From the NCBI GenBank assembly GCA_964016885.1, contig OZ024741.1:114638001-114702000 (forward strand): DNA of 64,000 nt. The letters run 5' to 3'. The translations under genes and the position numbers were made by a program. Below are positions 21,040-60,921 of this stretch, piece by piece. Origin of the DNA: Eledone cirrhosa (lineage: Eukaryota). Position 1 is the stretch's first letter, and every line of letters starts with the position of its first letter. Under the pieces are notes generated by a model, which was given only the letters and a program-made list of their open reading frames with translations, searched no databases and was not told the DNA's origin.

Positions 21040-21101
21040 TAGCAAGATGTATGTACGTATGTATGTATGTATGTATGTATGTATGTATGTATGTATGAAT
21101 G

Positions 21102-24100
21102 TATTCTTCTGGATTTATAATTTCACAAATTTTTCCCAATAGAGAAAGAGTCGGTTTCTAACATAGACACAAGACTCTCTCATTGGAATTTACGCAACAT
21201 CAACTAGGTAGATTATGTATGCATGCATACATGCATGTGTAGATATGGATGTTATTGTATGTGTGGATGTGTATGTTTTGAGTTGTATGTGTGCCTGTGT
21301 ATATGCTTTGTATCTGTACATGTGTATATGCAGTTATTAGATGCAACATTTTTTTAATGTTTTACATATTTTTACTGTTCCGTTCATGGATTGTACTTGT
21401 AATTTCCTAACTAGTTGTGTTCTTTCTGTTCCTGCGAAGCCTAGCTTCTCAAGATTTATATTGAGGCAGCTACTAACATACCCCAGTGCCCCAATAATCA
21501 CAGGCATAAATCTAAAGGTGTAATCAGGGTGGAGTATCTGCAGATTTCTCATCAGTTCTGCGTAAATATTCTCCTTTTCGCTAATCTTTGATATTATATT
21601 GGCATCTGCTGGGCAGCTAATTTCCACTACTGTGCATGCTTTCTTCTCCCTGTCCCATATCATAATATCTGGTCTGTTATGCCTGCATTTTATTGGGGTT
21701 ATTACTGGAGCATTCCACCAGTACTCTTTCATATTATGTACATGGATGTCTTCCACATTTCTGTAGCTTTTAATGTATTTATTATCGGGGCTATCTTTTT
21801 TACGGATTGCATTGTACAGTGTTTTAGACACTACATCATGCATCATAGGTAGATAGTACCGCGATGTCATCTTTGGACAGCTGCTGATGACATGGGTGAT
21901 ATCTTCGATGTTAATTCTGCAGAGTCTGCACTTGTTATCACATCTAGGTGTTTTGCTTGCATCCCTATCTCTTTTGTGAATCAGGTATTTCGTGTTAATT
22001 TCTTGTTCTTGGATTGCAAAAGCGTATCCTTCAAAGTGGGAGCCAATATAGCGGTTGTTGGTCCAAGACAGACTACTTTCCTTATCTATATTACTCTCAC
22101 TCTGGAGCTTCCTGGCAACATATCCATGCATGATTTTTTGCTGATAAGCATGCAGTTTTTCATCCATGGATTCACTGCGATACAGCTCAGCGACTTCCTG
22201 GGGTGTGAGATTTTGATTATCACACAGGGAATATCTCTCGAGGAGTTCCTTCCCAACTCTCACGATCTTATCTGTTTCATGCAGATAGACTTGCTCGAGA
22301 GACGAGCTCCTACGCTTCGAGGTTCGTAGATGTTATCGGAAGGATATGATGCGACATTCAAATGCTGTCTGGACTGATGTTAGGCCTCTGCCTCCCTGCT
22401 TACATTTAAAGTAAAGGCGGTCTATGTCACTGTTGATGTGGATGTTTCCGGTGTTGTTTAGTATCTTTAGAGATCCAACATCAACTGCTTGGATTTCGTC
22501 TATCGCCCAATTGAGTATTCCAAACGTTGGTGTTAGGACAGGCACAGCAAACACATTGTGAGCCAGTTTTGTTTTGCGCAGAGAGTTCCGATGACCAAAT
22601 CTTTCTTAATCGGGTGTAGTATTCCTTGGTTACGCGTTCCTTATTACAGATACCATTATAGGATATGTTCTCATCTATCCCCAGGTAACTGTAGGAGTCC
22701 TCATCAGATATCGGTGAAAGAGTTAGGCCATTGATGACAATGTTGCTAGATTGGGTTGTTGTTTTCCCCCGCTTTACCGTCATATATGAGCATTTATCTT
22801 GGCCAAACTCCATTCCTATATCCTTTGAGAACGTTGTAACCAGGTCAAGATTTTTCTTCATCCCATTCTTGGCATAGAGTTTCAGATCATCCACAAAGAA
22901 ATTATGGGTTAGGTTCGTATTTTTGTCCTCCCGTGAGCCAACGATGCATCCCTCACATTTCTTGAGCAGAAAGGACAAGGGGTTTAATGACAGGTTGAAT
23001 AATATCACAGAGAGACTGTCCCCCTGAAATATACCCCTGCGATATTTTATTTTATCAGTGAAAATAGAATCCTCCCTCTCTGTCTTTAACCTTAGGATAG
23101 TAGCCCAAGAAGAAGACAGCCTCTCTATGGCTCTGACAATAATGTCTGGGACTTTAGCAAGTTGGAGGGCCTCTATCATCCAAGAGTGGGGAACAGAATC
23201 GAAAGCTTTCCTGTAGTCCAGCCAGACTGTAGCCATATTCCTCCTAAGTTGTCGCACCTCCGACATCGCAGTTTTGTTCAGCACATCCCCAAACCTCTTT
23301 CTTTCCAGGTGCTTGTTCATCTGTGATGATGTTATTATTTTGGATTGGCAGTATCGGTAGAGAGTCAGACACCATGCTTTGAAGCATAGAGTTAGTCATT
23401 TTATGATCTGAGTTCAAATCCCGCCGAGGTTAACTTTGCCATTCATCCTTACGGGGTCGATAAAATAAAGTACCAGTAATGCACTGGGTAATTTGCTGGC
23501 CGTGTGCCTAAAATAAAAACAATTATTTTCACAGTGATCTTGGAGGAATAGGTTCAGACAGGCTGTATACATCTTATACATCAGGTTCTGGCATGCAATG
23601 GGTCGGTAGCTTTTTGCTAAGTGGGTGTCTTTGTTCTTGGGGATCAGTAATGTTTGTGTTAATGTCAACCATTCTGGTATAAGTGTATCTCCCTTAAGAA
23701 CTTGTTGGTAGAGGTCAGTAAAATACCTCCGATATAATATCAGTTTTTTGTACCAGTAGCCTACAATCATGTCTCTTCCTGGTGTTTTCTTATCTTGGAG
23801 TTTTCCTATCACAGTCTCAAGGGTACCCTCACTTATTTCGTATGTTTTTGTTGTAGTGTAGGAGCAATAGTTCTTTCGGATTTCTTTTAGCCACACTGCA
23901 TCTTGGTTGAAATTCTTCTTTTCACCCCATATTTTTCTCCAAAAGGAATCTATGTCTTTCTGGGATGGGGCCTCAGTGACACTTACTATTTTGTTCTTCA
24001 TATCTCTATAGACTGATGTTTGGTTTCGTCTGATATCTTTTATTAAGCACTTTTCTCTCATCTAACTTCTTCAGGTATCGGCGTTTTTCGTTAACAGCTC

Positions 24101-25240
24101 TCAATTCTTGTTTGAGGGTGATCAGCTTATATTGAACAGTTCTGGTTCTACTGTTACCAAACATCGTCTCTATTTTATTTTTCACTCTTTGTTGGTGAGG
24201 AGTGAGGTTTTTTTGTGTTTGTTTGCATGCAAGGAGCATTGTCACATATCCTATGGTTTTTCGTAAGTCAGCAATCTTTTTTTCTATTTTAGTTATATAT
24301 GATGGTATTTTTGGTGGTGTTTTGTTCTTGTTAATATCTCTGCTATCACCAAGATAATGTTTCACTGTCGTTGCTAAGGCATATAAACAGGCGTTGATTT
24401 GCTAAAATGTTGGGGTTTTTATCCGTCGTAAATATTCATCCCCTATTTCGTCAATAACACGTATTATTTCATTATTTGTCTTTTTTTAATTAAATATTAT
24501 CGTTTTAATACGTTCAGCAAGAGAGATGTTTATACATGAATTAATTTCTCCATGGAAGATTTCGTTGAGGGAAATTTTCAATTGTTTATACTTTTGATTA
24601 TTATTATTATCGATAGTATTTTCCACAACAGTCGAGGCAGACTCGGATGGTACACGTGGTGTCAAATTTCTTCGATTATTATTATTATTATTTCTTCGAT
24701 TATTATTATTATCGATAGTGTTTTCCCCAGCATTCGAGGTAGACTTAGATGGTACACGGGGTGTCAAGTTTCTTACATTCATAGTTGTTTCAAGACACTG
24801 TTCGACCTGGTTGCTAGGAAGTCTAATAGCATGGCGACCTGTAGCACGTGTTGTTGATCCCATGTTTGTTGTGGGGGACTTACAATTAATAATATTTATC
24901 TTATTTTTACGTTCAACAAACGTCGCTTGTTGGTGTAATTGTTTCGCTGTGAAATAATTTAGCCCTGGGTCCATTTCATCCCAGTGTAGCTTCATTCTGT
25001 TCATATAGTCAATGGAGGGATTGTTCTTTGCCATTTTATAACAATTAAATAAATCATCATGAAGTTCGCAACTCCAAGAGAAATGCGATTTATAATTTCG
25101 GTTTCTTCTGTAGCTACAACTGAATACATTTTGTTTACCTTTCTCATTGTTTGTCTTCGATACTTCCTTAATTTTGTTGATGTTGATGTTGTGTTCAGCC
25201 ATGTTGTTTGTAGCAAATCCTTGTAAAATGAATTATGTAT
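21102..25240 (-). mobile_element. Near full-length R4/Dong-type RLE LINE (family A), frameshifted
   Basis: ORF pieces 25202-21337: RT (YRPIAC, WLDYRKAFDSVPH, GIFQGDSLS, FFVDD), CCHC knuckle (CRLC..H..SSC), RLE (RPDI..E..CP). 3' end abuts (TATG)n at 21047-21101. Confidence 0.93.
23341..23527 (+). mobile_element. tRNA-derived SINE inserted in the Dong RT region
   Basis: Interrupts the DHCENN|IITD coding sequence; short TTATT duplication at the flanks. Confidence 0.9.
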
Positions 25241-25269
25241 TTAGTCGGATATTTAGTCGGATATCAGGA

Positions 25270-25440
25270 AACTGGGTTAACTCAGCCATAAAACCTGCGG
25301 CTCAGTAGTTACCGATGATGTTGATCTTTTCTTCTTTTCGGGTTATAGCTACTGTCGCTCAGAGAGTGGGATTGGCTCAGTGCACAGTCTTTCCTCACTT
25401 TAAAAATATGCGTCACGCACAGGCATTGCACGAGTGCATT
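25270..25440 (+). mobile_element. Diverged RTE-5'UTR-like fragment
   Basis: AAAACCTGC..GATGATGTTGA..GAGAGTGGGATTGGCT..GCACAGGCATTGC matches the element family at 36912, 58212 and 60183. Confidence 0.55.
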
Positions 25441-25457
25441 AATAATTATTAATAGTA

Positions 25458-25502
<45 letters not shown>

Positions 25503-25503
25503 T

Positions 25504-28500
25504 GGCGACCTACGTAGTAAATCGAATCATCGTGAGCTCCGCAAAGGTTTGTTATTTTCAGTTGTTTAAATTGCCATTCATGGAAAATTTTTATTGTTAA
25601 CTGTATATAAGTGCACATACATTGTTATCTGAAAAGTGTTGCGAAAAGCCGATAACAGCCGCTGAAGTACGGGAGGCAATGACTGGCTGCACAAGGGGTA
25701 AATCGCCTGGTTTGGATGGTCTGTCCTATGAACTTTACGTACAGATGCCAGACTTGTTCGGAGGCCTCTTGGCGGACGTCTACTGCAACTGGCAACAGAA
25801 CGGGAGAATTCTCAGCTCTGAGAGCCAAGGAGCTGTGGCACTGCTGAGAAAGGATCCGAACAAGGGTGATAACATAGATAATTTCAGGCCCATAACTCTG
25901 CTAAACACAGAGTTCAAGATTTTGGCCAAGGTGCTAGAAAAGAGGTTGGCGCTTGTCGTTGGTGGTCTGGTCGGAGAGGCCCAGACATGCGCCATTCCCG
26001 ACAGATCCACGGCAACCTCCACCTCATGCGATACATCGTAGAGAGGGTAGCTAGGGAAACTGGCACGGGTGGGTCCTTGATCAATTTAGATCAGTCGAAA
26101 GCCTTCGATAGGGTCGACCATCGTTACCTAGCGGCAGTCCTGAGGGCGGCTGGCTTTGGGCCCGTCTTCAGAGGCTGGATCGTTGCCATGCACAGCAACA
26201 TCTGCTCTGTGGTGAGAGTAAACTGTCACCTTTCGGAACCGTTCAACATCATGCGCTCAGTCCGCCAAGGAAAGGATGTCCCCTCTCGTCCCTCTTGTAC
26301 GTATTGACTCTCGAGCCATTACTGCACAAACTGGAGACGTTGAGGGGGGTTCCGCGACAACCACCACCCCAACCACCACCGCGATAACATAAACAAAAGA
26401 AACAAATAAATTAACTCCTGATATCGAAATGAATTCAACCAAAATTAACTCTTCCACACCGAACACCACTGACGCCACCACCACCACAACTGAAACTAAA
26501 ATTAATAATAACAAAAATAACGATAACAACAACAGCAACAATGACATTAAGAAAACCACCCTGAGTTTTGCCAGAGTAGCAAAACAGTGCGAAGCATTTC
26601 AGGTAACTCTGGAGGAATTAGAAGAAGCCAAAAATATTATAAAGAAAGATGGGTACAGGGTCAGCCTCACCCCCCACCTAATAAAATGGAGCATCGGCGC
26701 CTATACACCGTGTCTTATCGAACAATTAATATAAAATCGCGCCGAGTGGAACGGGCATCTGAGTCCCAAATCCAAAAAGCTTTGGGACATGTGTGGGCAA
26801 AAAAACCCCACATCAGACGTGGGTAGAAATATGGAACCGTGGACGTGTTCTTTGAAACACCACAGGAGGCTAGAGAACACTCCATGGTCCCATTAAGAAG
26901 TGACAACTTCACACTCGTCCCAAGCTACTGTGGCCAGAGACTATTAAAGATCAGGGTCACCCACCTTCCACCGGCCATCGAAATTCCCTGGCTAATAGCT
27001 GCCGTCCTCGCCGGCATCGAAGCCAACACAAAGATAATCGAAATAGCGAAAGAAAAGCAGGAGAACTCGTCAGAATAGAGTCCATTAGGTTGAGTAAGGC
27101 GTTAGCAATAGAAAAAAATAGAGCAGAGGAGAATTAGTTAGAAAATTAGACGAGGCGCTTAGCAAAGGGATCGCGACCGACGTACTTGCGGCGAAATTGG
27201 CCCTTGACCAATTCTTCAATGCAAAGCACGAAGGCTGCGTTGTCAGAGCTAGGGTGCGTGCTCTCAGACACGAGGGGACGAAAGCCGTTCAATGGGGCCT
27301 AGTGGTGGAGGCGCGTCGTGGCAACAAAGCCACGATCCGGTCTTTGGTGCACCACGACGGGCGCATGCTACTCGATCCCGGGCAAATCTGTGTGAAGCTT
27401 TTCAGCGACACTTCGTACAGCTGTTCGGGGGCAGCGGTGGGCCGGATCGGGGGATGGACTTTAGTGTCTACCTCGACGGACTGCCGCGGCTCTCGGCCAC
27501 TGGGGCGGAGTGTTGCGAAAATCCGATAACAGCCGGTGAAGTACAGGAGGCAATGACTGGCTGCACAATGGGTAAATCGCCTGGTTTGGATGGTCTGCCC
27601 TATGAACTTTACGTACGGATGCCAGACTTGTTCGGAGGCCTCTTGGCGGACGTCTACTGCAACTGGCAACAGAACGGGAGAATTCCCAGCTCTGTGAGCC
27701 GAGGAGCTGTGGCGCTGCTGAGAAAGGATCCGAACAAGGGGGATAACATAGATAATTTTAGGCCCATAACTCTGCTAAACACAGAGTTCAAGATTTTGGC
27801 CAAGGTGCTAGAAAAGAGGTTGGCGCTTGTCGTTGGTGGTCTGGTGGGAGAAGCCCAGACATGCGCCATTCCCGACAGATCCATCCACGGCAACCTACAC
27901 CTCATGCGATACATCGTAGAGAGGGTAGCTAGGGAACCTGGCACGGGTGGGTCTTTGATCAATTTAGATCAGTCGAAAGCCTTCGATAGTGTCGACCATC
28001 GTTACCTAGCGGCAGTCCTGAGGGCGGCTGGCTTTGGGCCCGTCTTCAGAGGCTGGATCACTGCCATGCACAGCGACATCTGCTCTGTGGTGAGAGTGAA
28101 CGGTCACCTTTCGGAACCGTTCAACATCATGCGCTCGGTTCGCCAAGCATGTCCCCTCTCGTCCCTCTTGTACGTATTGACTCTCGAGCCATTACTGCAC
28201 AAACTGGAGACGTTGAGGGGGATACCGCGCGAACTAGGATGCGGAAGATCCGTGTCAGTATATGCGGAAGACGTCACCGTAGTGGTGTCGAACGCCAAAC
28301 ACATCGAGGCGATCGGCACTACACTAAGAGAATACGAAGCGGTAACAGGAGCAATGATCAACCAGGAAAAGTCAGTGGGCCTGCAGCTCGGCACCTGGAG
28401 AGGCAGGTCCATGCCGTCCAACAGCGTCGTCGGGCGCTGGACGGACGGACCGGTTAAATTGCTAGGGGTCTGGTTCGGTCCGAACCTCCCGACGGACAAA

Positions 28501-29870
28501 AACTAGGACGAGGTGACGAGCAGAGTGGCTTCTCACCCAGAAATGGGCGGAGAGAAAGCTATCCCTGAAAGGTCGAGCGAAGGTGGCTAACGCGTACATC
28601 GCACCCGTCATCTACTACCGCCTGACCGTCGTACCTTGTCCTAAGCCCCGCCTGACTGACTGGAGCGTTTGCTCTTTCGCTTTTTGTGGAAGGGACGCGC
28701 TCCGATGGTCAGGCGGTCCATCTGCTGTCAACACCCGCTACGTGGAGGGCTGGGCATGCCGTGGCTGATGATGCGCAGACACGCGCTCAGACTACGACAT
28801 CTCCACCTCTTCCTCGACGGTGATCAGGTGTGGTCGCCGTTTGCTAGACACGTCTTTCCCCAGCTCGTCTCCTTAACGGAGCTGCAGTCCTGGGTCAAGC
28901 GAAGACCGAGAGGGAGCGCTTGGAGACTGGAATGTCTTCAGGCGCTCACGGCCCTCGACCAATCGGGCAATGTGATCGGTGGAAACTCCACCTTGGCGTT
29001 CTATAGAGGATTAGTGGAGGGGAAGAGCGACGACGTACTTGGAGAAACTCTAGGCGTCGACGAAAATCAACTAGCCAATCTCTTCGGAAGGACTTTCGGG
29101 CCGGGGCCTATGGACAACTTCCAGAAATCCCTGGCCTGGCAGTGCTACCGAGGAGCTTTACCAGTTCGGGATAAACTCTACAGACACGGAGGTGCCGTCA
29201 GCCGGGCATGTCCGAGACGCGCGCAGGGCGACGAAACCGTCCTGCACGCACTCGTAAGGTGTTCGAGCATTGCTGACTTGTGGGTTTATGTCGAACACCT
29301 GCTGTCACGTGTAGGACGGATCCAGCTATCAGCTGAGTCCATCTATCAGCCTGCCCCACCCTCTTCCTTTAGCCGGGAAGGGCAGGCAGTTTTTATCTGT
29401 CTGGTGGCCATGGCGAAAGAGATAGTATGGTGGACACGTTTGAAAGGGCTGAAGACGAGCACTTACCTTTTCGGTGGTGCCCTGATTAATTTTTTCAAAT
29501 TTCATTTGAAAAGGAAAATCAGGGTAGGGAGGGAAGTGCTCTCTTCCCAGCATTTTGTTGAATGATGGGTGAGAGAAGCAAGTATGGCCCGAGTGAATGG
29601 GCCTACTCTGAGTATGTGTCTGTAAATTAAAGGTGGAAAACTGGGAGAGGGCACTTGCCCTGGTGGTCAGGGTCACTGTGGCCTTTTAATGGGCTTTCTC
29701 CACAAATGTCCTTCGGAAGTCTCCCCCCTATTGGGGAATTTTTCATTGTTATTTTTTATTACATCCTCTGTTTTTTTACACGCAGAAATGCCCATTTGTA
29801 CCGTCCTGTATTGTCCTGTACTGTCCTTAATGTCTACTTTATGTAAACCCATGTGGTTAATAAAGAAAGC
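25504..29870 (+). mobile_element. Tx1/L1-clade LINE (family 1), internally rearranged copy flanked by (TTA)n
   Basis: ORF2 RT motifs FRPITLLNTEFKIL and NLDQSKAFD, C-terminal ETVLHALVRC; 5'UTR shared with the copy at 29898; ends AATAAAGAAAGC+(ATT)n. Confidence 0.92.
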
Positions 29871-29897: not shown

Positions 29898-32800
29898 GGC
29901 GACCTACGTAGTAAATCGTATCATCGTGAGCTCCGCAAAGGTTTGTTATTTCCGTTTGTAAAAAATTGCCATTTATGGAAAATTGTTATTGTTAACTATA
30001 TATAAGCGCACATACATTGTTTTCCGAAAAGGAGACCCAAAAAGATTGGGGCCTTGTGCCCAAAATTTAAACTTTTATGATTATCAAAAAATTTCTTTGA
30101 AAAAAAATGGCTAATTCACCTCTGCACCAAGCAGCTGAAAGCCTTCCTCACAAATTAACACCTCACACCGACACCACCATTGTAAATGTTACTACGTTTG
30201 CCAACACTAAAAAAAATATAAGCAGTAGCAATATTTTAAATTTGTCTCAGGCAAACATTCATTTCCCGCCATTACCAATGACTGCAGGTGTTAAAGCCTC
30301 CACCACCACCACCACCGCGACAACCACCACCCCCACCACTACCGCGACAACAGAAACAAATGAAAAAAATAAATTAACTCGTGATGTCGAAATGAAATCA
30401 AGCAAAATGGACTCTTCCCCACCAAACACGACTGACGTCACCACCACCACAACTGAAACTAAAATTAATAATAACAAAAATAACGATAACAACAACAGCA
30501 ACAATGACATTAAAAAAAAACACCCTGAGTTTTGCCAGAGTAGCAAAACAGTGCGAAGCATTTACGGTAACTCAGGAGGAATTAGAAAATGCCCCCAAAA
30601 TGGTAAAGAAAGATGGGTACAGGGTCAGCCTCACCCCCACCTAATAAAATGGAGCATCGGCGCCTATGCACCGTGTCGTACCGAACAATTAATGTAAAAT
30701 CGCGCCGAGTGGAACGGGCATCCGAGTTCCAAATCCAAAAAGCATTGGGACATGTGTGGGCAAGAAAAACCCACATCAGACATGGGCAGAAGTATGGAAC
30801 CGTGGACGTGTTCTTTGAAACACCACAGGACGCTAGAGAACACTCCATGGCCCCATTAAGAAGTGACGACTTCACACACGTCCCAAGCTATTGTGGCCAG
30901 AGACTCGTAAAGATCAGGGTGACCCACGTTCCACTGGCCATCGAAATTCCCTGGCTAATAGCGGCCGTCCTCGCCGGCATCGAAGCCAACACAAAGATAA
31001 TAACAATAGCAAAAGAAAAGCAGGAGAACTGGTCCGGATCTGGGATGGAGCTCCTGATCCAAGCGGACCAAAAAAGCATTGAGGAGATCCCAGAGGTAAT
31101 AGACCTCACTGACGGCAGCCACCTCACCGTAATTGTCGAGGGCAGAAGGCCTAGGTGTGTCGTTTGTGGTGAAAGAACCCAACCAAGGGCTTTCTGCCCT
31201 CAGGCTAAAAGGTTGAGGCCACCTCTCCTACCCACCCCAGTGACTCAACCATCAACACCACCAGTAGCAGAGATGGCAGCAACAACTGTAGCAGCAACAA
31301 CAGAAGCAACTATAACAGCAACAACCCCAGCAACAGTAGCAAAACCAACACCACCACCACCCAACGCGCCAGAACTAGCACCAGCGCCTACACCATCCAC
31401 CACGGCACAACCAAAACTAAAGCCTGTGGAGGATTTTCCACTCCCCGGCCTATCACAACTGGAGACAGATTGTGACGACGAGGAGTGGGAAACGGTATTA
31501 GGAAAAAAAAAGAAACCAAAAAAGAAAAAATTCTCTTCCTTCCCCCTCCAAAAACAAAATACAGAGGGAAACAAATAAATTAACAAACAAAAAGTTAGGA
31601 CAGATATGCCACCATCCACACCAGCATCACCAACCCCATCACCCCAAACACCAACACCATCACCATCATTAACCCCAACACCACCATCACCAACACAACA
31701 AAAGTCACCAAAATGCGAAACAGAAACAAACCCACAACAAACGCAAACAAAATAAAACAACCAAAACGATACACACTACACAGCATTAAATTTGAACAAG
31801 CAATTATTACACTACATCCAACACAACACCAGCATCACAGAAAAAGACTACACAACAACCCCAAAATTCACACCAGCTCCACACATACAAATCACTCGCA
31901 TCACACAGAAAACGTACATGACACTAAAACAAAAATTCCCCAAAGACATCGGAGACTTCCGACAAGCACTCTCCAGGAGGATTTATAAGGACATCCTTCC
32001 TGAGGAGGCCACAAGCAGTGAAAAGGATGGAAAAACCGTCCTTCCTCTACGAGAAGTAAGGTAAGTGGTCTTTCCCATCTTTTCCACTCCATTTCAACAT
32101 GACCTCACTCAGAATAGGCAGCATAAATGCGCGTGACTTGGGGTCGTCATGGAAGCAGGGCCACCTGCTCAACGACCTCAGGTCACTAAACATAGATGTA
32201 GTGGCCATCAGCGAGACCAGAATCTCCGAAGCACGGGCCTTTGCACCGATCTTCGGCGGCTACGATGTGTACGCATCTCCCAGCCGTCCGGGATCGGGGG
32301 TGGAGTTGCTGTGCTTTTTCGGAGAGGTTTGGATCTTGCCATACGGGCCATCTTCCTGGACCCAGAAGGTAAGTTGGTGGTGCTGGACGTGACCAGCGGA
32401 GACGGGCAAGCTTTCAGGTTAGTGGCCGTCTATGCCCCGACAGGAGCAGGGCGGCCTGATTTCTTCCGGCGTCTAGAGACCTTTCTTGGAACGTCCCGCT
32501 CTTTAGTGTTAGTGGGCGACTGGAACGGGATCTTAGATGCACGCTGGGATTGTGTAGGATTAGTGGATATGGAAGGAGGGTGCAAGAGTCTCACCAACCT
32601 GCTCAGGCGTTTTGAACTGTCTGACAGGTACCGATTGGATTTCCCGAATGTACCAATATGGACTTGGACAAATCGTATAGGGTCATCCAGATCATATCTA
32701 GATAGAGTATTTTGTAGGGAAATAGATAGGTCTAGCATAGGCTGTCCACAATTCAAGATAGTCAGCTACACGGACCACAAATTCGTGATCTGTGTGCTTG

Positions 32801-34573
32801 ACTTAGATAGGCTTCATAGACGAGGACCCGGCTACTGTAAGCTAAACGCGTCCTTACCAGCGCGCAAGGCCTACAGAGACCGGATTAGCGAACTAGTTAA
32901 GCGGGCGTTGACGGGGGCCATCGTCAACAACAAGTGGTGGTTTGCTCTGAAAAGAGCAATTAGAATAGAGTCCATTAGGTTTAGTAAGGCTTTAGCAATA
33001 GAGAAAAATAGAGCAGAGGGAGAACTAGTTAGAAAATTAGACGAGGCCCTTTGCAAAGGCATCGCGACCGACGTACTTGCGGCGAAATTGGCCCTTGACC
33101 AATTCTTCAATTCAAAGCACGAAGGCTGCGTTGTCAGAGCTAGGATGCGTGCTCTCAGACACGAGGGGACGAAAGCCGTTCAATGGGCCCGAGTGGCGGA
33201 GGCGCGTCGTGGCAACAAAGCCACGATCCGGTCTTTGGTGGACCACGACGGGCGCATGCTACTCGATCCCGGGAAAATGTGTGAAGCTTTTCAGCGACAC
33301 TTCGCTCAACTGTTCGGGGGAAGTGGCGGGCCGGATCGGGGGATGGACTTTAGTGTCTACCTCGACGGACTGCCGCAGCCACTGAGGCGGAGTGTTGCGA
33401 AAAGCCGATAACAGCGGCTGAGGTACGGGAGGCAATGACTGGCTGCACAAGGGGTAAATCGCCTGGTTTGGATGATCTGCCCTATGAACTTTACGTACAA
33501 ATGCCAGACTTGTTCGGAGGCCTCTTGGTGGACGTCTACTGCAACTGGCAACAGAACGGGAGAATTCCCAGCTCTGTGAGCCGAGGAGCGGTGGCGCTGC
33601 TGAGAAAGGATCAGAACAAGGGGGATAACATAGATAATTTTAGGCCCATAACTCTGCTAAACACAGAGTTCAAGATTTTGGCCAAGGTGCTAGCAAAGAG
33701 GTTGGCGCTTGTGGTTGGTGGTCTGGTGGGAGAGGCGCAGACATGCGCCATTCCCGACTGATCCATCCACGACAACCTCCACCTCATGCGATACATCGTA
33801 GAGAAGGTAGCTAGGGAACCTGGCACGGGTGGGTCTTTGATCAATTTAGATCAGTCGAAAGCCTTCGATAGGGTCGACCATCGTTACCTAGCGGCAGTCC
33901 TGAGGGCGGCTGGGCTTTGGGCCCGTCTTCAGAGGCTGGATCGCTGCCATGCACAGCGACATCTGTAGTGAGAGTGAACAGTCACCTTTAGGAACCGTTC
34001 AACATCATGCGCTCGGTCCCCCAAGGATGTCCCCTCTCGTCCCTATTGTACGTATTGACTCTCGAGCCATTACTGCACAAACTGGAGACGTTGAGGGGGG
34101 TCCCGCGCGAACTAGGATGCGGAAGATCCGCGTCAGCATATGCGGACGATGTCACCGTAGTGGTGTCGAACGCCAAACACATCGAGGCGATCGGCACTAC
34201 ACTAAGAGAATACGAAGCGGTGACAGGAGCAATGATCAACCAGGAAAAGTGAGTGGCCCTGCAGCTCGGCACCTGGAGAGGCAGGTCCATGCCGTCCAAC
34301 AGCGTCGTCGGGCGCTGGACGGACGGACCGGTTAAATTGCTAGGGGTCTGGTTCGGTCCAGACCTCCAGACGGACAAAAACTGGGACGAGGTGACGAGCA
34401 GAGTGGCTTCTCTCACCCAGAAATGGGCGGAGAGAAAGCTATCCCTGAAAGGTCGAGCGAAGGTGGCTAACGCGTACATCGCGTTCGTCATCTACTACCG
34501 CCTGACCGTCGTACCTTGTCCTAAGCCCCGCCTGACTTGCGCTGGAGCGTTTGCTCTTTCGCTTTTTGTGAAG
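29898..34573 (+). mobile_element. Tx1/L1-clade LINE (family 1): 5'UTR, ORF1 (30107-32064), ORF2 from 32099; 3' end replaced by RTE
   Basis: ORF1 with a CX2CX4-knuckle remnant (RCVVCGERTQPRAFC). ORF2 APE motifs (SINAR, SETR, VYAP, GDWN, SYLDR, TDH) and RT (QGCPLS, YADD). Multiple frameshifts. Confidence 0.93.
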
Positions 34574-36890: not shown

Positions 36891-36911
36891 ATGTATGTAT
36901 GTATGTTATAT

Positions 36912-37250: not shown

Positions 37251-37360
37251 TGTATGTATGTATGTATGTATGTATGTATGTATGTATGTATGTATGTATG
37301 TATGTATGTATGTATGTATGTATGTATGTATGTATGTGCGTATGTGCGTATGTATGTATA

Positions 37361-47932: not shown

Positions 47933-47994
<62 letters not shown>

Positions 47995-48173: not shown

Positions 48174-48479
48174 ATTTCTATACACATACATACACATACA
48201 CACATGAGCACACACATATATACATGCATACATATGGTGCCAAGGAAACCATAACCATAAACCACAGACCGCCTGAGAACAAAGGATAAAACTAATTCCT
48301 GCACCTGTAAGATATCTATTCATTTTCACAGAATGTTTGTTCATACTGTGTTTATTTATTTATTTATTTATTTTCTCACAAAGGAATCTTTATTCTCAAT
48401 ACATGTATTTCACTCACAACTTTGGTTTAAAAACCATTGATAATTACATAGATATGAAAAAGAAAGATAACACCAAAAT

Positions 48480-48990
48480 TAAGTAATGAGAAACGGGGGA
48501 AGAGGTAAAGATGGGGCGATCTGGCTGTATGGGAAAGTAGGGGAAATGATTACAAATGGCATAAATGAGAGGGAAAGAAGGGAAAAATCAGACTCTAGGG
48601 CCACAGAAGAAAGAAAGGGAGCAGGGGAGAGGGTGATGGGCTCTGAGCACACCACGGACAAAACGGCAAATGGATTTCCGCGGACAATGGCCAGCAACAC
48701 CCGCTGCAACAGCCAACTCACCTCGCACGGCTCCTTCCTCAGACGGGCTGCTGACGTTCTGATTTTACGGAGGAGCTCGGCAGTCCGGGGTTCGAGGATG
48801 TCTGAGGTCTCGATGGTGACCGGTACGAAGAGGAACCGACCTGACAAGCCCCAGAATTTGTTTGTCATCCTGTCCTCTGCATTGCAGGTCGCAGTACTGG
48901 GGTTTATGACCGAAGCGATCAACTTGGAGGTGGAGAACGTGATGTCCTAAATATGGGATTTACCTCCTATGAATGGGAAAAGGTTAATTC
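48480..48990 (-). mobile_element. CRE-clade LINE 3' fragment (RLE C-terminus)
   Basis: AEDRMTNKF..FLFVPVTIET..SWLLQRVLLAIVRGN resembles the CRE-type AE..K..KY..FVP.A.ET.G..LS.A..RGN motif. Confidence 0.75.
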
Positions 48991-50093
48991 TCAGGGCGCT
49001 GGCCATTGTGTTTATTTGAATTTTGGATTATTGGATTTCATTGTCATTTTTCTCTTGGTTTTAGTTTAGTTTTGTGTATAAATGACGACTTGGTTCACCT
49101 AGCAACAAACCGGTATTAAAATTAATTGTTTATATACGTCTAAAACTTGATAATCCCAGAGTTCAACCGTGGCTGTCAGCAGGATCGAGGCAGAAACGAT
49201 GTTTACGTAATTATTAAATGTTACATTTACATCTTCTAATTATACACGCACACACACATGTGTGTATATGTGTGTATATAAAAGCTGTTGCTGTTGTATT
49301 AGAATGATATTCCAGATATACAAGCAGCGAAAGAGAGCCATCGACGTTGTCGCTTGATCTGTTGGAAATAGCAATTAGTTTATCACCGAATTAGACAACA
49401 TTGCACCGAATTAGACAACATTGCCATCTCAAGAAAATGAGATTACACATTAGATAATACAGTTACTGTGTATGAGGAACACAACGACATCAACAGCAGC
49501 AGTAACAACAACAACAACAAAAGCACAAACAGGATAATTACATTTAGAATGACTTTGATCATATATCTGCTTAATCAGGACTGATCTAGGGCTAAGCAGC
49601 AGACATGCTGACTTAACATTTTGTGTTATGATACATTTCGGAAAAAAATTTTGTTTTTTAGTTATTCATGACAGAAAATTAATTCTATTATTAGCTTTTC
49701 AAACATATATTTTTAAAAACAAATTAAATATAACCAACAAAAAAAAAAAGAAAACCCAAACCAAAACAAAATAAATACATAAAAATTAAAAATAACTTGA
49801 AGAATATATATATTTTTTTTCTTCCATTCTGAAATGAAAAACAATCGGGAAAGATGTTCAAAGGAAGAAAAGGTTACTTCAAAGATGTTTTAAAAGCATC
49901 TCCAGCCATTGAATAAGATTAAGAGAGATTTTAGAGAGATTTCTTGTTCTATTCTCAGACATGTCATCTTACAAACAACAACATATATATATATGCATAC
50001 ACACATACACATATATATGCACACACGTACATATATGCATATATCCGTACATAAATGCACGAATTTCTCTTTTACCACATCTCCTCTCTCTCT

Positions 50094-52747: not shown

Positions 52748-53157
52748 GATGAATGAGAAATAAAAGATGAAATAGAAAGATAGGGAGTGAGAAGATGAAT
52801 GAACAGAAAAAGCTTTTGAGAAAAAGCACATGTGTATTCAGGCAGCTATATTTGAGAATATATATATATATATATATATATACGATATTAACAAATGGAA
52901 GCTATATTTATAAAACCATATTAATTTTATTATACATATTTCAAGGATACCATGTTAAATTATGGTATGCTTTCATCAGACAAAATAAATATATACCAGT
53001 TTTATAAATAAACATTGACGTACCCTTTCAAAATGCAACCGTTACTTTTGGAGGACATCAAGGATAGTGTTTATTTTAGTAAGTCGTTGTGTTAAGGAGA
53101 AGGAAAAAGACGGAGAGAGAGAAAAACCGAGAGAGAGAAAAGTGGAGAAAGAAAGAA

Positions 53158-54150: not shown

Positions 54151-57100
54151 TTACATAGTATAATTGAGTACATAAAATACAAAAGGATTATATTTCCAGA
54201 TAGTTCTAGCTATCCCATCGTGTCTCATGGGGAGGTAGTAGCGAGATGACATTCTTTCGCAGCTGGCAACAATGTGGCTTACATCCTCGATCTTTGTTTT
54301 ACATAGCCTACATTTATTGTCAGCTGCTGGCCCTCCTCTTTTGTGCAGCAGATATTTGGTAGGGAGTTCTTGTTCCTGTATTGCATAGAGATATCCCTCA
54401 AGGTGTGATGTCATAAACTTGTCGGAACTCCATGCCAGGCTTTTTGAGTGGTTTATCCCCTCTATGGTCTGTGTTTTACGCCTCAAGTATCCATGCACAA
54501 CTTTCTCTGTAAATTGGTCAATTTTTTTTTCTTGTTTGAACATTGAATAGGATCTTCCGATTTCTCTGGGTGAGAGATTTATATCAGGCTTTATTCCATA
54601 TCTCTCCTCCAGATCAGTCGCTATTCTAATGATATTTCTTTTTTCATGCTCATAAACCTGAGCAAGATGGTCGCCAACCTTTTTCCTCTGTTGAAGGTGT
54701 TGCTTCAGTGTTACTATCCGGGTCTCATATGTTGTTAATATTGATTTTAGACCCCGGCCACCTTCCTTGCGTGAGAAGTATAGCCTATCCACATCACCAT
54801 TGATGTTAAAGTTCCCAGTAACACTGAGAAGTTTTCGAGTTCTAACATCCATCTCACTTAGTTCTTGCAATGACCAGTTCAGTAGGCCAAATGTTGGCGT
54901 TAGAATTGGCACAGCATAGGTATTGTGGGCAATGTATTTGTTGTATGCTGACAGTTCTGATGACCATATTTTTTTAACTCTTCTGAGGTATTCAGTTCTG
55001 GTTCTCTCCTTATTTATGGGTCCATCATATCTGACATTCTCATCCTGTCCAAGATATCTGTAGTTGTCACCTGACTGCAGAGGTTGTATTGTCAGGCCGT
55101 TCATATCTAGATTTCTAGAGGAGGGCACAGCTCTTCCACGTTTTACTGCCAAATATGCACACTTGGACTCACCAAATTTCATTTTGATGTCGGTTGAAAA
55201 TTGTGTAATGAGGTCCAATTGTTTCTTGATGTCATTGATATTTGGCCCATACAACTTCAGGTCATCAACAAAGAAAAGATGGGAGATACTTCTGGGCCCA
55301 CTTCTTTGTCCACCTTGTTTCCTGAGTAGGTAAGATAGTGGATTCAGTGAGAGAACGAAGAGTAGTACTGACAAGCTATCACCCTGAAAGATGCCCTTCT
55401 GGTAATGTATCCTATCAGTCTTAACCTGCTCCTTCTCACCTCTAAGGATCAAATTGGTGTACCAGTTCTTGGTCAGGCGTTCAACAGCAGCTACTAATGG
55501 TTGTGGGACTTTAGCTAACTGTAAAGCCTTAATAATCCACCCATGAGGTACACTATCAAATGCTTTTTGATAGTCCAGCCACACGACAGTCATGTTTCTG
55601 CGATTCTTTGTTGTTTTTTCCTGAATCATTTTGTTAGTTAGTAGGTGATCTATGCAACCCCACACCTCCCTCTTTCCACCAGCTTGCTCAGGTGTTATGA
55701 TGTTGTTGGTAGCACAGTGATCCTGTAAGAACAGGTTAAGGCACCCAGTATATAATTTATACATGATGTTTTGGCAGGCAATTGGGCGGTAATTTTTAGC
55801 AAGGGTGGTTTGGCTATTTTTGGGAATGAGGAGAGTAGTGGCAGTTGATAACCATCTGGGCAGTTCTTGTGTGCCCTTAATGGTTTCTGTAAACAGCCGT
55901 ATGAGATCTTGCCGATAGAAAGTGAAATTCTTCAACCAGTATCCTGTAATGAGGTCTGGGCCTGGCGATTTCCTATTCGACATTTTCTGTAGAGCTGTTT
56001 CCAGTATTGACCCATCTATGTCATATTGTTTTGTCTGGACATGTTGGCAGTAGTCCTGTTCCAGTTGTTTTAGCCAATTAGCTTGTCTGTTGAATCCGTC
56101 ATCCGTTTCCCATACAGATCTCCAGTAGTTCTCAACCTGTTCTTTTGAAGGGGTGTCGTTTACAGGGATTGAGCTTTTGCCACCGAAGCTGCGATAAACT
56201 GATTTAGGATCTCTGGCAAACAATCTATTTAGCACTTGTCGTTTATGGGCTGTTGACTTATATTTTAGTCTTTCTGTTGTAGCTGTGAGTTGTTGTTTCA
56301 ACTGGTGTAATTTGGAGTTCAAAGTTTTAAATTTGGTATCTCCAAATCGTCTCTCTAACTTTTTCTTTAGGTCTTCCTGGTGTCGTGTGAAGTTTCTCTC
56401 TATGTTGCATTTCATAACGACTGCGATGTGTGAGATACTTCGTCTCAGGGACAAAATTTTGGTTTTTAAATTTCGCATCCACGCTGGTTCAGGCTTTCTG
56501 TTTGTATCTTGATTGCGTGGTTTTAGATGTGTGTTATATGATAGCAATGTGACAGCTGAAACATATAACAAAACATTGAGCGTTTCAAATGTCGTTTCTA
56601 CACCTTTAGATCGTATAGCCTTCAGATAATTGCCAGCTATTTCGTTCACCGCTTCCAATTCCAATTTAGTGGGTTCTTTACTGACTCTAGTGTTGTATGG
56701 TCTGTCACTCACATTAAGGCTGTGTATCTCTTGAAACATATCGTTCCATATCACTTGTAGGGTGCCCACAAGTTTTTGGTGCTCTGTTTGTTCAGTAGAG
56801 TCATGAATTGCAGCCTCGTTGTTGATGTGGTGACAATTACTACTAGAGTCAGCTGACCTTTCTCGCTGTTCTTCAGTGGAAGTGGGATGGATTTCAGCAA
56901 AATTGTTGGTGAGCTGTTCACTGTTAGATTTAGCTGGCCATTCTCTTTGTCTGTCAGTGGAGGTGGGGTGGTTGTCTACAAGGGCTGTATTTGTAGTATC
57001 ACTCGATTCCGTTAGATGTATCAATTTACATCTAATGATACGTTTTGCCTGTTCATTTAGATGCTTTGGAGAAAAGTCTAATTCTGGGTGTTTGGAGTTC

Positions 57101-57249
57101 CATAAAGTTTTTAGCCTTTGCATAAAACCGAACTTTTGGGGTTCAGATTGTTTGTATGCTTCATATAATTCTTTGTTAAGCTCGTAGCTCCACTGTATAC
57201 AACGGTTGTAATTGCGATTTGGTCGAAGGAGACTTGTACTTTTTGCCAT
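54151..57249 (-). CDS. R4/Dong-type LINE ORF (1032 aa): N-terminal domain, RT, CCHC; truncated before the RLE endonuclease
   Basis: Uninterrupted ORF with NYRPIAC, WLDYQKAFDSVPH, GIFQGDSLS, FFVDD, YRYLG, GGRGL and CRLC..H..ASC. Homology stops at ~54194; the last ~14 codons come from the flank. Confidence 0.9.
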   Translation of the reverse strand: MAKSTSLLRPNRNYNRCIQWSYELNKELYEAYKQSEPQKFGFMQRLKTLWNSKHPELDFSPKHLNEQAKRIIRCKLIHLTESSDTTNTALVDNHPTSTDRQREWPAKSNSEQLTNNFAEIHPTSTEEQRERSADSSSNCHHINNEAAIHDSTEQTEHQKLVGTLQVIWNDMFQEIHSLNVSDRPYNTRVSKEPTKLELEAVNEIAGNYLKAIRSKGVETTFETLNVLLYVSAVTLLSYNTHLKPRNQDTNRKPEPAWMRNLKTKILSLRRSISHIAVVMKCNIERNFTRHQEDLKKKLERRFGDTKFKTLNSKLHQLKQQLTATTERLKYKSTAHKRQVLNRLFARDPKSVYRSFGGKSSIPVNDTPSKEQVENYWRSVWETDDGFNRQANWLKQLEQDYCQHVQTKQYDIDGSILETALQKMSNRKSPGPDLITGYWLKNFTFYRQDLIRLFTETIKGTQELPRWLSTATTLLIPKNSQTTLAKNYRPIACQNIMYKLYTGCLNLFLQDHCATNNIITPEQAGGKREVWGCIDHLLTNKMIQEKTTKNRRNMTVVWLDYQKAFDSVPHGWIIKALQLAKVPQPLVAAVERLTKNWYTNLILRGEKEQVKTDRIHYQKGIFQGDSLSVLLFVLSLNPLSYLLRKQGGQRSGPRSISHLFFVDDLKLYGPNINDIKKQLDLITQFSTDIKMKFGESKCAYLAVKRGRAVPSSRNLDMNGLTIQPLQSGDNYRYLGQDENVRYDGPINKERTRTEYLRRVKKIWSSELSAYNKYIAHNTYAVPILTPTFGLLNWSLQELSEMDVRTRKLLSVTGNFNINGDVDRLYFSRKEGGRGLKSILTTYETRIVTLKQHLQQRKKVGDHLAQVYEHEKRNIIRIATDLEERYGIKPDINLSPREIGRSYSMFKQEKKIDQFTEKVVHGYLRRKTQTIEGINHSKSLAWSSDKFMTSHLEGYLYAIQEQELPTKYLLHKRGGPAADNKCRLCKTKIEDVSHIVASCERMSSRYYLPMRHDGIARTIWKYNPFVFYVLNYTM

Positions 57250-57705
57250 GATGAGTTCGTCTATTCACTAATATTTTGTATTTATTTTTTTTAAATAGTC
57301 GATGATCTTCTTTAAAAGTTACGACAAAGTTCTGTCAGAATCAAATTTAAAGTTATTCACAGCTTGGGTAATATTTCTTTTCAGTTAGTTTTTAATTCTA
57401 CAACTGTGTTTTAAACGTTGTTCTTGAATCGTTTGAATCGAGAACAAAAAGAACCGTTACTTAGTATATTCCTTTACGAATGTAATATAATATAACAACG
57501 CTGTATTTATATGTTAAAGTTTATGTATCATTCATATAAATAGGTGTTCTACAACATATTCACAACATTCACAGTTCAAACACTTATATTTTTGTTTCTG
57601 AATCGAAAACGTTACTTTTATATTTCTTTATAAATGTAATATAACAACGTTGCATTTATATGTTAAAGTATATGTATCGTTCATATATCATAAGTGTATG
57701 TATCA
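54194..57705 (-). mobile_element. R4/Dong family B element with intact 5' end and missing 3' end
   Basis: ORF plus ~450-bp putative 5'UTR abutting (TATG)n at 57711-57820. Confidence 0.88.
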
Positions 57706-57829
57706 TAAGTGTATGTATGTATGTATGTATGTATGTATGTATGTATGTATGTATGTATGTATGTATGTATGTATGTATGTATGTATGTATGTACGTATGT
57801 ATGTATGTATGTATGTATGTATATATATA

Positions 57830-58192
57830 AACCTGGAAATGCTCGGCTTGGTGCCCGAGCGCGTAGTTATCCCACAGGTAGTGAGAGACCCTTAGTCCTT
57901 TTTAGGATATCATAGAAGGAGAAGGAAAACTCTGATTTAAAACCTGGATGTCGATGGCAGCCAATGATGTTGACCTGCTCATATATTTGGATACCTGTCA
58001 CCATTGTTCGGAGCGTGGGATTAATCTAGTGCAAGTCTTTTCTCCATTCAAAAAGTTTCAAGTATAAGCATAACTTGATCTAAAGATCTTATACATGCGT
58101 TGCATGTCGGAAAAATGTATGTTTTCGTGCTACCCATGTATGATAGAGGGGATCAAGTGATGACAAATCTCGAACTTGAGTTGCAGATATCA
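57830..58192 (+). mobile_element. Diverged RTE-5'UTR-derived element with TATG tail
   Basis: GACCCTTAG..GGAGAAGGAAAACTCTGAT..CCAATGATGTTGACCTG..GTGGGA, shared with the neighbouring family. Confidence 0.6.
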
Positions 58193-58211: not shown

Positions 58212-58727
58212 AGGTTTCTTGGTGAGGAGGGTGACTTTGAACATCCTGCAGGACTAAAAGCAAAACCTGTCAAAGGGCAAAGGAGCTCTTAAGAGTCAAT
58301 GGCCATCCAAAATCACCAGGAGAGATGACCCCTTAGCCTTTGTCAAGGCAGAATTCTAGGAGAAGGAAAACTCTGATATAACACCTGCAACCCTGATGGT
58401 ATCCAATGATGTTGACCTGTTCTTCTTTTTGGTAAATATCATCTTGGTTACGAGAGTGGGACTGGCTTTGTGCAGTGCTTTTGCTCACTATAAAAGCTTC
58501 ACGGCACAGGCATTGCTTTATATCTGGAGATCTCTCTGCACATGTCGTCACATGGTACCATGGGCCCAGCACTATGTGTCAATAATTGTCACAAGTGTAG
58601 TGTTTGTACCAGAGTTTTCAAGTCGCTGGCTGGACTAAAAAGTCACACTCGTTCAGCGCATCGGCAGGGGTTCTCCTACATGGATATAAAGTAGTGGCCG
58701 TACTCGAAAACGAGTTGGCAGTCACCA
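58212..58727 (+). mobile_element. Non-autonomous bipartite RTE derivative
   Basis: Near-identical to 60250-60759; TATG on both sides. Confidence 0.88.
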
Positions 58728-58745
58728 TGTATGTATGTTTGTATA

Positions 58746-60110
58746 TATTCTTCTGGGTTTTTTAATTTCACAAATTTTTGCCAATAGAGAAAGAGTCGGT
58801 TTCTAACATAGACACAAGACCCTCTCATTGGAATTTACACAACATCAACTAGGTAGATTATGTATGCATGCATGCATGTGTAGATATGGATGTTATTGTA
58901 TGTGTGGATGTGTATGTTTTGAGTTGTATGTGTGCATGCTTTGTATCTGTACATGTGTTTGTATCTGTACATGTGTATATGCAGTTATTAGATGCAACAT
59001 TTTTGGAATGTTTTACATATTTTTACTGTTCCATTAATGGATTGTACTTGTAATTTCCTAACTAGTTGTGTTCTTTCTGTTCCTGTGAACCCTAGCTTCT
59101 CAAGATTTGTATTGAGGCAGTTACTAACATACCCCAGTGCCCCAATAATCACAGGCATAAATCTAAAGGTGTAATCAAGGTGGAGTATCTGCAGATTTCT
59201 CATCAGTTCTGCGTAAATATTCTCCTTTTCGCTAATCTTTTATATTATATTGGCATCTGCTGGGCATGCTTTCTTCTCCCTGACCCATGTCATAATATCT
59301 GGTCTGTTATGCCTGCATTTTATTGGGTTTTTTTCTGGAACATTCCACAAGTACTCTTTCATATTATGTACATGGATATCTTCCACATTGCTGTAGCTTT
59401 TAATGTGTTTATTATCGGGACTATCTTTTTTACGGATTGCATTGTACAGTGTTTTTGCCACTACATCATGTCTCATATGTAAATAGTACTGCGATGACAT
59501 CTTTGGACAGCTGCTGATGACATGGGTGATATCTTCGATGTTACTTCTGCAGAGTCTGCACCCGTTATCGCATCTCGGTGTTTTGCCTGCATCCCTATCT
59601 CTTTTGTGAATCAGGTATTTCGTGTTAATTTCCTGTTCTTGGATTGCAAAAGCGTGTCCTTCAAAGTGGGAGCCAATATAGCGGTTGTTGGTCCAAGATA
59701 GACTACTTTCCTTATCTATATTACTCTCATTCTGGAGTTTCCTGGCAACATATCCATGCATGATTTTTTTGCGGATAAGCATGCAGTTTGTCATCCATGG
59801 ATTCACTGCGATACTGCTGAGCGATTTCCCTGGGTGTGAGTTTTTGATTATCACACAGGGAATATCTCTCGAGGAGTTCCTTCCCAACTCTCATGATCTT
59901 ATCTGTTTCATGCAGATAGACTTGCTCGAGAGACGGGCTCCTACGCTTCGAGGTTCGTAGATGTTGTCGGAGGGATATGATGCGACATTCAAATGCTGTC
60001 TGGACTGATGTTAGGCCTCTGCCTCTCGGCTTACGTTTCAAGTAAAAGCAATCTATGTCACTGTTGATGTGGAAGTTTCCTGTGTTGTTTAGTATTTTTC
60101 GAGTTCCAAC
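58746..60110 (-). mobile_element. R4/Dong family A, 5'-truncated copy between TATG tracts
   Basis: ORFs 58988-60041 match 21337-22554; 3'UTR matches 21102-21336. Confidence 0.92.
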
Positions 60111-60153
60111 ATGTATGTATGTATGTATGTATGTATGTATGTATGTATGTATG

Positions 60154-60182
<29 letters not shown>

Positions 60183-60184
<2 letters not shown>

Positions 60185-60759
60185 CATGTATCCCAGTACA
60201 ACCTGTCTCATGGTCGGGTCATTGGCGACTAAACTGGCAACCCCACTAAGGTTTTTTGGTGAGGAAGGTGACTTTGGACATCCTACAGGACTAAAAACAA
60301 AACATGTCAAAGGGCAGAGGAGCTCTTAAGAGTCAATGGCCATCCAACATCACCGGGAGAGATGACCCCTTAGCCTTTGTCAAGGCAGAATTCTAGGAGA
60401 AGGAAAACTCTGATATAACACCTGCAACCCTGATGGTGTCCAATGATGTTGACTTGTTCTTATTTTTGGTAAATATCATCTTGGTTAAGAGAGTGGGACT
60501 GGCTTTGTGCAGTGCCTTTGCTCACGATAAAAGCTTCACGGCACAGGCATTGCTTTGTATCTGGAGATCTCTCTGCACTTGTCGTCACATGGTACCATGT
60601 ACACTATGTGTCAATAATTGTCACAAGTGTAGTGTTTGTGCCAGAGTTTTCAAGTCGCTGGCTGGACTAAAAAGTCACACTCGTTCAGCGCATCGGTAGG
60701 GGTTCTCCTACATGGATATAAAGTAGTGGCCGTACTCGAAAACGAGTTGGCAGCCACCA
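60183..60759 (+). mobile_element. Longest copy of the non-autonomous bipartite RTE derivative, (TATG)n tail to 60833
   Basis: RTE-like 5'UTR (GGAGAAGGAAAACTCTGA) fused to the terminal zinc-finger codons CSVCARVFKSLAGLKSHTRSAH* and the 3' hairpin. Confidence 0.88.
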
Positions 60760-60921
60760 TGTATGTATGTATGTATGTATGTATGTATGTATGTATGTAT
60801 GTATGTATGTATGTATGTATGTATGTATGTATGTTCCATGTATGAATATTCCATCGTGTTTTAGGACATCCATCTATGCATGTATATGTGTATGTATGTA
60901 TGTATATGTATTTATATGCGC

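Follow-up and report, generated by a model that had tools for sequence, protein, structure and literature searches.

We analysed a window of 64,000 nucleotides (nt) from Eledone cirrhosa (GenBank assembly GCA_964016885.1, contig OZ024741.1, positions 114,638,001 to 114,702,000 of the forward strand; coordinates below count from its first nucleotide), a stretch of eukaryotic sequence that begins with an 11-kb satellite (2-11027) and continues as repeat-dense DNA. Element anatomy was established by self-comparison, translation and a Pfam search of the window, which yielded six minus-strand pieces of retrotransposons with a restriction-like endonuclease (RLE) and, on the plus strand, three copies of Tx1-like elements, the 3' part of one RTE and four short elements. 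The RLE pieces, which are our main subject, are R4/Dong-like and form two families, family 1 with copies A, B and C and family 2 with copies D, E and F. On the evidence below it is probable that these two divergent families are inserted in (CATA)n/(TATG)n arrays with a fixed polarity, likely since their protein recognises the repeat.

The initial annotation of this DNA had described six R4/Dong pieces, all on the minus strand and in two divergent families; self-comparison and translation confirmed the first point, and a protein identity of 48.9% over 661 aligned residues bears out the second. Copy A (21105 to about 25240, the 5' boundary being approximate) is broken and nearly full length, with a start codon at 25202, an RxNRxY motif, reverse transcriptase (RT), zinc knuckle and RLE, and a SINE-like (short interspersed element-like) insert at about 23341-23527. 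Copies B (37364-38136) and C (58749-60110) are 5'-truncated and have CATA on both sides, and the three members of family 1 are mutually 83-92% alike. In family 2, copy D (38220 to about 38850) carries a SINE-like insert and has no array on its 5' side, while copy E (41536 to about 42512) is 5'-truncated, with an array 5' and a degenerate 3' flank. Copy F (54194-57696), which has lost its 3' end, retains an open frame that spans the N-terminal three-helix domain to the zinc knuckle and has a 5' untranslated region (UTR) shorter than that of other copies. E and F are 98% alike across 437 nt, D and E 73-81% in matched segments. The possibility that E and F are one split element was rejected: a target duplication would not reach the 437 nt by which they overlap, and the 5' junction of E is separate. 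The insert of copy D, at 38450-38700, is bounded by a 17-nt target duplication. The family 2 5' UTR (57452-57697) consists of subrepeats of about 155-175 nt, which contain a TATGTATC stretch that coincides with the 5' junction of F.

The class assignment rests on several features. A 1037-residue frame matched RVT_1 (E 2.9e-25) and zf-RVT in Pfam and gave no Exo_endo_phos match, as befits the single open reading frame (ORF) of R4 elements. In translation, A, C and E contain CRLC..H..C, RHD/MHD, RPD..D and VE.SCP, all conserved in alignment A1, which we take to be a C-terminal CCHC knuckle and PD-(D/E)xK endonuclease. For the homolog P0002, whose full-length predicted model has a pLDDT (predicted local distance difference test) of 86, the best PDB sequence matches were R2 proteins. 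The (TAA)n target of Dong in the strict sense was found on the element strand in none of the six copies, and CATA stood 5' in four of the six.

Each of the six copies adjoins a TATG array on one or both sides, as had been annotated; in E and F, however, the contact is at the 5' end and not where it had been placed. On the 3' side, A is flanked by (ATGT)n at 21047-21104, B by (ATGT)n at 37250-37359, which is also the tail of a short RTE-type element, and D by (TATG)n at 38137-38219, which is also the 5' flank of B. In agreement with the earlier description, the element strand of copies A, B, C and D ends in GAAGAA(T/C)A, after which CATA-type repeats begin, and on the plus strand the junction reads ..TAT|TCTTCT in A, C and D and ..TGT|TCTTCT in B. 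An array of at least 16 nt is present on the 5' side of four of the six copies (B, C, E and F), with (CATA)n directly upstream on the element strand. Three arrays sit between two 5' ends, namely (TGTA)n running into degenerate (TCTA)n at 42515-42723, between E and Tx1-like family 2, (TGTA)29 at 57710-57826, between F and a short RTE-type element, and (ATGT)18 at 60111-60183, between C and another short RTE-type element; these are therefore tails of neither neighbour.

The array background was computed over the non-satellite region of the window, of which TATG arrays with a 15-nt margin make up 1.7%. A random point falls in an array, or at most 15 nt to the left of one, with p=0.0168, so that P(>=4 of 6) is 1.2e-6; this figure is nominal, and the true one is weaker because the copies are nested. 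No Dong-like copy lies within any of the 19 (TA)n runs of the region.

Junctions at other loci were sought in sequencing data. Reads from 4 of 15 listed runs (X1, X2, X4 and X13) were aligned to copy F, with 24 of 989 loose-end rows listed; X13 consists of raw reads from restriction-site-associated DNA sequencing (RAD-seq), and X1, X2 and X4 of assembled contigs. Part of the Dong-like element is present in runs under six organism labels; X3 and X5-X9 also contain part of it, but the evidence given here comes from the four aligned runs. Among the listed 5'-side loose ends of X13, three of four are (TATG)n, at 54394, 54637 and 55577; each X13 row is probably one locus, because these are RAD-seq data, and the row at 54637 may represent copy E itself. 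Depth on F in X4 is about 147,600 at the 3' end and 6,000 at the 5' end, a drop of about 25-fold, as would be expected if many copies were 5'-truncated. Other family 2 copies, in X1 and X13, carry one more UTR repeat than F (joint 57696 to 57522). For the R4/Dong-like families, then, the both-side flanks of truncated copies, the arrays between 5' ends and the raw reads support the view that the repeat is a target rather than a tail, and we have fair confidence that the CATA target is real.

Several observations weigh against it. The 5' side of copy A retains a 7-nt array remnant and that of copy D no array, E is without a clean 3' array, and the 5' array of B doubles as the 3' flank of D. None of the 12 listed 5'-side rows from the contig runs X1, X4 and X2 shows a clean TATG array, although one is degenerate, and at 55577 the X1 flank is non-TATG whereas the X13 flank is TATG. 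Several contig rows look like divergent relatives that simply continue, and contig ends would often fall at shared repeats.

The explanation that survives best besides recognition of the repeat by the protein is homology priming. The RNA would acquire a CAUA-repeat 3' end read from the flank, nicking would be loose in AT-rich DNA, only sites that pair with the tail would prime efficiently, and the target would be inherited through the RNA. The AGAAGA ends of both families do run straight into CATA, the RTE-type elements likewise have the repeat on both sides and an (ATGT)n tail, and short microhomologies occur at the junctions. Yet the 3' junction has the same phase in three of four copies across families that are 49% identical, a clade-specific N-terminal motif (see below) accompanies the non-AAT flanks, and E has a 5' array and no 3' array, so that we regard homology priming as unlikely. 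Passive accumulation, whereby the repeats are tails or later expansions and the insertions simply persist in a dead zone, rich in repeats, next to the 11-kb satellite, would suit the nesting of the copies, the repeat density of the region, the two of six copies that have no 5' array and the contig loose ends that are not TATG. It is difficult to reconcile with the small share of the region that the arrays and their margins occupy, with the three arrays between two 5' ends, with the absence of copies from all 19 (TA)n runs and with the TATG junctions at other loci in raw reads, and we hold it to be very improbable. If the Dong-like protein does recognise the repeat, it would nick the TATG strand, as the 3' junctions suggest, and prime reverse transcription there.

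The TATG repeat is also a property of the plus-strand RTE-type elements. A 5'-truncated RTE-like element (34571-36886) contains RT, C-terminal C2H2 fingers and a microsatellite-rich 3' UTR and ends in (ATGT)5; its 5' junction, which is joined to a Tx1-like copy, has no TATG array. The short elements comprise a 5'-truncated one with ATGT on both sides (36907-37249), a member of a second family that ends in (ATGT)5 (57827-58191), one whose ATGT tail at 58727-58748 holds copy C (58213-58726) and the longest (60184-60758), which is followed by (ATGT)19 at 60759-60834. All four begin beside a TATG array. Three are related and have in common with the RTE its last 30 nt (87%) and, over 50 nt, some of the zinc-finger region (74%), and the fourth, of the second family, is likewise ATGT-ended. 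RT, C2H2 fingers, a microsatellite 3' tail and short elements with a common 3' end together identify an RTE with bipartite derivatives. The 5' part of the short elements presumably resembles an RTE 5' UTR, and a plus-strand piece similar to that 5' part of the short elements (72-73%) lies at 25240-25430, head-to-head with copy A. Elsewhere in the window, a minus-strand fragment at 17385-18140, opposite in orientation to the plus-strand RTE, reads like what we assume to be an RTE-X/Expander-type 3' region.

Copies B and C are inserted within (ATGT)n tails of RTE-type elements, and among the arrays listed five of 12 directly follow an RTE-type 3' end; RTE tails are a likely source of target sites. 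RTE activity would supply many of the target arrays, with re-insertion into them from the other strand. The exclusive partitioning of microsatellites among clades that the initial annotation proposed is not supported, since the RTE and the four short elements end in the TATG repeat on the plus strand; as TATG is common to them and to the minus-strand Dong-like elements, the microsatellite is shared on opposite strands, not partitioned.

The strict orientation claimed along with it is not established beyond chance. A common orientation in six of six copies has p=0.031 if the copies are independent, but they are nested, and a count of six independent orientations was rejected; four nests give p=0.125, and three nests, on the assumption that the first and second are joined by the RTE-like piece at 25240-25430, give p=0.25 by arithmetic. 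Perfect runs number 14 for TATG on the plus strand versus 2 for CATA and collapse to about 5 clusters versus 1 (p=0.22), and (AC)n/(TG)n and (AG)n/(TC)n are present on both strands. What is real is the fixed polarity of the Dong-like copies relative to the repeat. The shared orientation can be attributed to strand-specific insertion into few parent arrays, and would have come from successive insertions into three or four of them that face the same way by chance. The full model of the initial annotation, in which each clade owns its microsatellite and a regional rule enforces orientation, can draw on TTA and TCTA on both sides of Tx1-like families 1 and 2, on the 14 versus 2 runs and on the hammerheads near (TA)n, but the TATG shared by two kinds of element, Tx1 evidence of one or two junctions, the collapse of the runs to a few clusters and the dinucleotide repeats on both strands leave it the least credible of all. 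What it asserts on clade partitioning and on strict orientation is overstated and of little further value.

Relatives of the Dong-like element were collected by a scan of metagenome contigs covering half of the collection, in which 79 loci were kept out of 344 confirmed; a search of viral contigs for such relatives found none. On the element strand of these 79 loci, (AAT)n was the repeat nearest the ORF on at least one side in 31 and on both sides in 11, (ATT)n occurred in 4 and (ACTT)n in 3, and ACAT/ATGT flanks were found in none of the 79, many of whose contigs end before any flank. The four (ATT)n-flanked relatives (L021, L039, L046 and L062, the last flanked on both sides) group in the tree, and may have the AAT target flipped to the other strand. 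Among named homologs, the one closest to the family 2 protein comes from Argonauta hians, with 53% identity across 83% of the query and 63% across 530 columns of the tree alignment.

Trees were built with FastTree (102 rows) and with IQ-TREE (31 hand-picked rows), from rows other than named R4/Dong references and R2/NeSL/CRE outgroups. A clade of 12 rows (support 100/99) unites the two families of the window with the three ACTT loci, with L032 and with six proteins, and this clade has no AAT-flanked locus inside it and is about 29-33% identical to AAT-flanked relatives. The CATA-targeting families thus appear to belong to a wider tetranucleotide-targeting clade; the branching inside it favours neither CATA nor CTTA as the ancestral state. 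The window families group with the (AAT)n-flanked loci, and outside this group fall two R4-clade relatives (L068 and L075), whose flanks we presume to be 28S ribosomal DNA (rDNA). The 3' flanks of two further R4-clade relatives (L053 and L054) presumably represent the 18S end and internal transcribed spacer 1, and may mark an unusual rDNA site.

The clade is also set apart by its N-terminus. RxNRxY precedes the first tryptophan of the N-terminal domain in all clade members that have an N-terminus; it is present in 8 of 21 rows in alignment A1, in 3 of 39 in A3 and in copy A, always in clade members, and no row outside the clade carries it in alignments A1 and A3. The predicted model of the domain has three helices (pLDDT 86), and its top fold matches are mostly of Myb/SANT/trihelix type and weak (Z 4.4-5.1, the best with Z 5.1 and a root-mean-square deviation of 2.4 over 58 residues). 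The region aligns with AAT-flanked relatives. A Myb/SANT-like domain that lies at the N-terminus and lacks zinc fingers has been described in the R4 clade, and that of Dong has been proposed to direct integration (PMC7998251). In one subclade two Myb-like domains stand in tandem at the N-terminus (L045 393-860, L070 292-696).

It is conceivable, and put forward here tentatively, that an old Dong-like sublineage left (TAA)n for C(A/T)TA repeats via a remodelled Myb-like arm and recognition helix, and that in octopods it exploits RTE-tail microsatellites from the opposite strand. In our main explanation, specificity would be conferred by the likely Myb-like domain at the N-terminus and the RxNRxY arm peculiar to this clade. 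Some findings weigh against that explanation. L001 and L002 start with (CTTA)n 220-230 nt ahead of the ORF, and the CTTA assignment rests on these two 5' flanks, because in L002 and L017 the 3' CTTA arrays come after a segment of 181 nt common to both, 88% alike versus 69% in the coding part; that segment may be another element, and these 3' arrays were rejected as target evidence. Seven of the 12 clade rows carry no flanking DNA. Foldseek with the N-terminal domain found nothing at E<=0.001, its sequence had no match in PDB or Pfam, and a Z near 5 may reflect a common arrangement. The association between RxNRxY and the target is a single coincidence at clade level.

Among molluscs, R4-Dong and CRE elements are described as almost restricted to cephalopods (PMC10294476), and in Octopus vulgaris Dong-R4 is abundant and recently active, with five families and 1129 recent insertions, for which the accessible part of the source lists no targets (PMC13282606). 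In insects, molluscs and cnidarians, Dong itself is described as specific for (TAA)n (PMC7998251, PMC3812793). The window elements are like Dong in their single ORF, N-terminal three-helix and possibly Myb-like region, RT, zinc knuckle, RLE and fixed-polarity insertion into a microsatellite. They differ in their target, (CATA)n in the window and (CTTA)n in two close relatives, in their separate clade and in the RxNRxY arm. Other microsatellite specificities on record are ACAY for Waldo, AC for Mino, TC for Kibi and TTC for Koshi, beside TAA for Dong (PMC3812793), and TG for Togen (PMC4640811). The ACAY of Waldo, an R1-clade element, takes in (ACAT)n, which as a repeat is identical to (CATA)n (PMC3812793). 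Unlike the single-ORF RLE elements of the window, however, Waldo has an apurinic/apyrimidinic endonuclease (APE) and two ORFs, and a shared target would be convergence, because APE and RLE are different endonucleases. Several microsatellite-targeting families have been listed, some within one species (PMC3812793), and the coexistence of endonucleases of different specificity, which the initial annotation took to follow from its assignments, is the expected situation.

We found no report of a CATA- or CTTA-targeting Dong in the literature, although Repbase and the O. vulgaris Zenodo library, which lay outside the search, may record one; the accessible parts of PMC13586686 and bioRxiv 10.64898/2026.07.22.740005 contain nothing on targets. 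RTE tails have been recognised as a source of microsatellites (PMC2887409), bipartite non-autonomous RTE derivatives are known (PMC5786205), and the octopus RTE-2_OV is described as having C2H2 fingers and a microsatellite 3' UTR (PMC9115989). The RTE described here shares with known RTEs the microsatellite 3' tail, the C2H2 fingers and the short elements with an RTE 3' end, its likeness to RTE-2_OV being one of description only. Unlike in those systems, its tails are landing sites for an unrelated RLE element in opposite orientation, an arrangement of which we found no description in the literature.

The class of RLE retrotransposons is being engineered for site-specific insertion (PMC13586686). 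A CATA/CTTA clade with a matching N-terminal change would be a testable case of target switching in such elements, and families with CATA, CTTA and TAA targets, if true, a natural series for decoding how RLE targets change. One retrotransposon would, if the link to RTE tails is true, build the niche of another. The CATA/CTTA clade could also explain how octopuses tolerate a family with over a thousand recent copies, and why octopus TATG microsatellites sit in shared repeat flanks.

The remaining assignments of the initial annotation concern Tx1-like and hammerhead-bearing elements. Family 1 of the plus-strand Tx1-like elements is represented by an internally rearranged copy 1 (25502-29870), which ends in AATAAA followed by (ATT)9, and by copy 2 (29898-34570), with APE and RT and a 3' part replaced by the RTE; family 2 consists of one full-length broken copy (42724-47932). 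The Tx1 ORF2 architecture of APE, RT and zf-RVT was found, with a match to Xenopus TX1 ORF2 at E 2.5e-37; tblastn back to the window gave E 3e-59 and 2e-40, and the endonuclease frame of the Tx1-like elements had no match in the PDB. The two families are about 64% identical over 288 residues of the endonuclease region. The proposal that family 1 sits in (TTA)n agrees with the arrays before copy 1 (25445-25501) and between copies 1 and 2, which represent one independent 5' junction and a tandem one. That of (TCTA)n for family 2 agrees with a degenerate TCTA-type array 5' and (TCTA)15 (47933-47994) 3', in a single copy. With one or two junctions each, both assignments are suggestive; a published criterion for Tx1 target specificity is that more than 20% of flanks share the target (PMC4494074). 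Described Tx1-clade targets are TC for Kibi, TTC for Koshi and TTCC/TTTC for crocodilian Tx1 (PMC4494074). The window elements resemble these in having a Xenopus-related ORF2 with APE and RT and a pyrimidine-rich sense-strand repeat at both ends, but TTA and TCTA, at the one or two junctions available here, fall outside the targets described. The 3' UTR of the RTE holds (TTA)n at 36671-36720, and the Tx1 family 1 array follows the RTE-like 5' piece (25430-25501); the RTE may also supply the Tx1 family 1 site.

Four type-I hammerhead motifs were found in the window (50 shuffles: mean 0.1, max 1), 98-229 nt from (TA)7+ runs, within 300 nt of which 18% of the region lies. The hammerheads are thus near (TA)n, in which the initial annotation had placed the hammerhead elements, though only one (52979) falls inside the interval to which that statement applied, and a (TA)n or microsatellite bias of Penelope-like elements has already been published (PMC8557442). 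The likeness to Penelope-like elements, type-I hammerheads near (TA)n, is here one of motifs alone; (TA)n has no polarity. The minus-strand motif at 52915-52987, 98 nt from (TA)n, is, from the motif, a likely Penelope-like remnant. The count leaves out two further hammerhead-like motifs with altered cores, one near 50440 and one near 52740. An Rfam scan of the window gave no hammerhead or other relevant family, and weak tRNA-like matches at 12841-13714 alone passed the gathering score. A 291-nt unit with a tRNA-like core at 12732-13889, present in tandem and inverted copies, is flanked by (TA)n, lies beside a hammerhead at 12610 and resembles the tandem/inverted ends described for Penelope-like elements. 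A tandem element on the minus strand at 14931-15580, between (TA)n arrays, has a well-formed hammerhead with its core at 15227.

A further minus-strand 3' piece of RLE type at 48374-49080 (FVPVTIET..QRVLLAIVRGN), which we assume to be CRE-like, ends in AATAAA followed by (AAAT)n and has no such array on its 5' side. The satellite at 2-11027 has a unit of 20-21 nt and a strong strand skew, and is possibly subtelomeric or centromeric.

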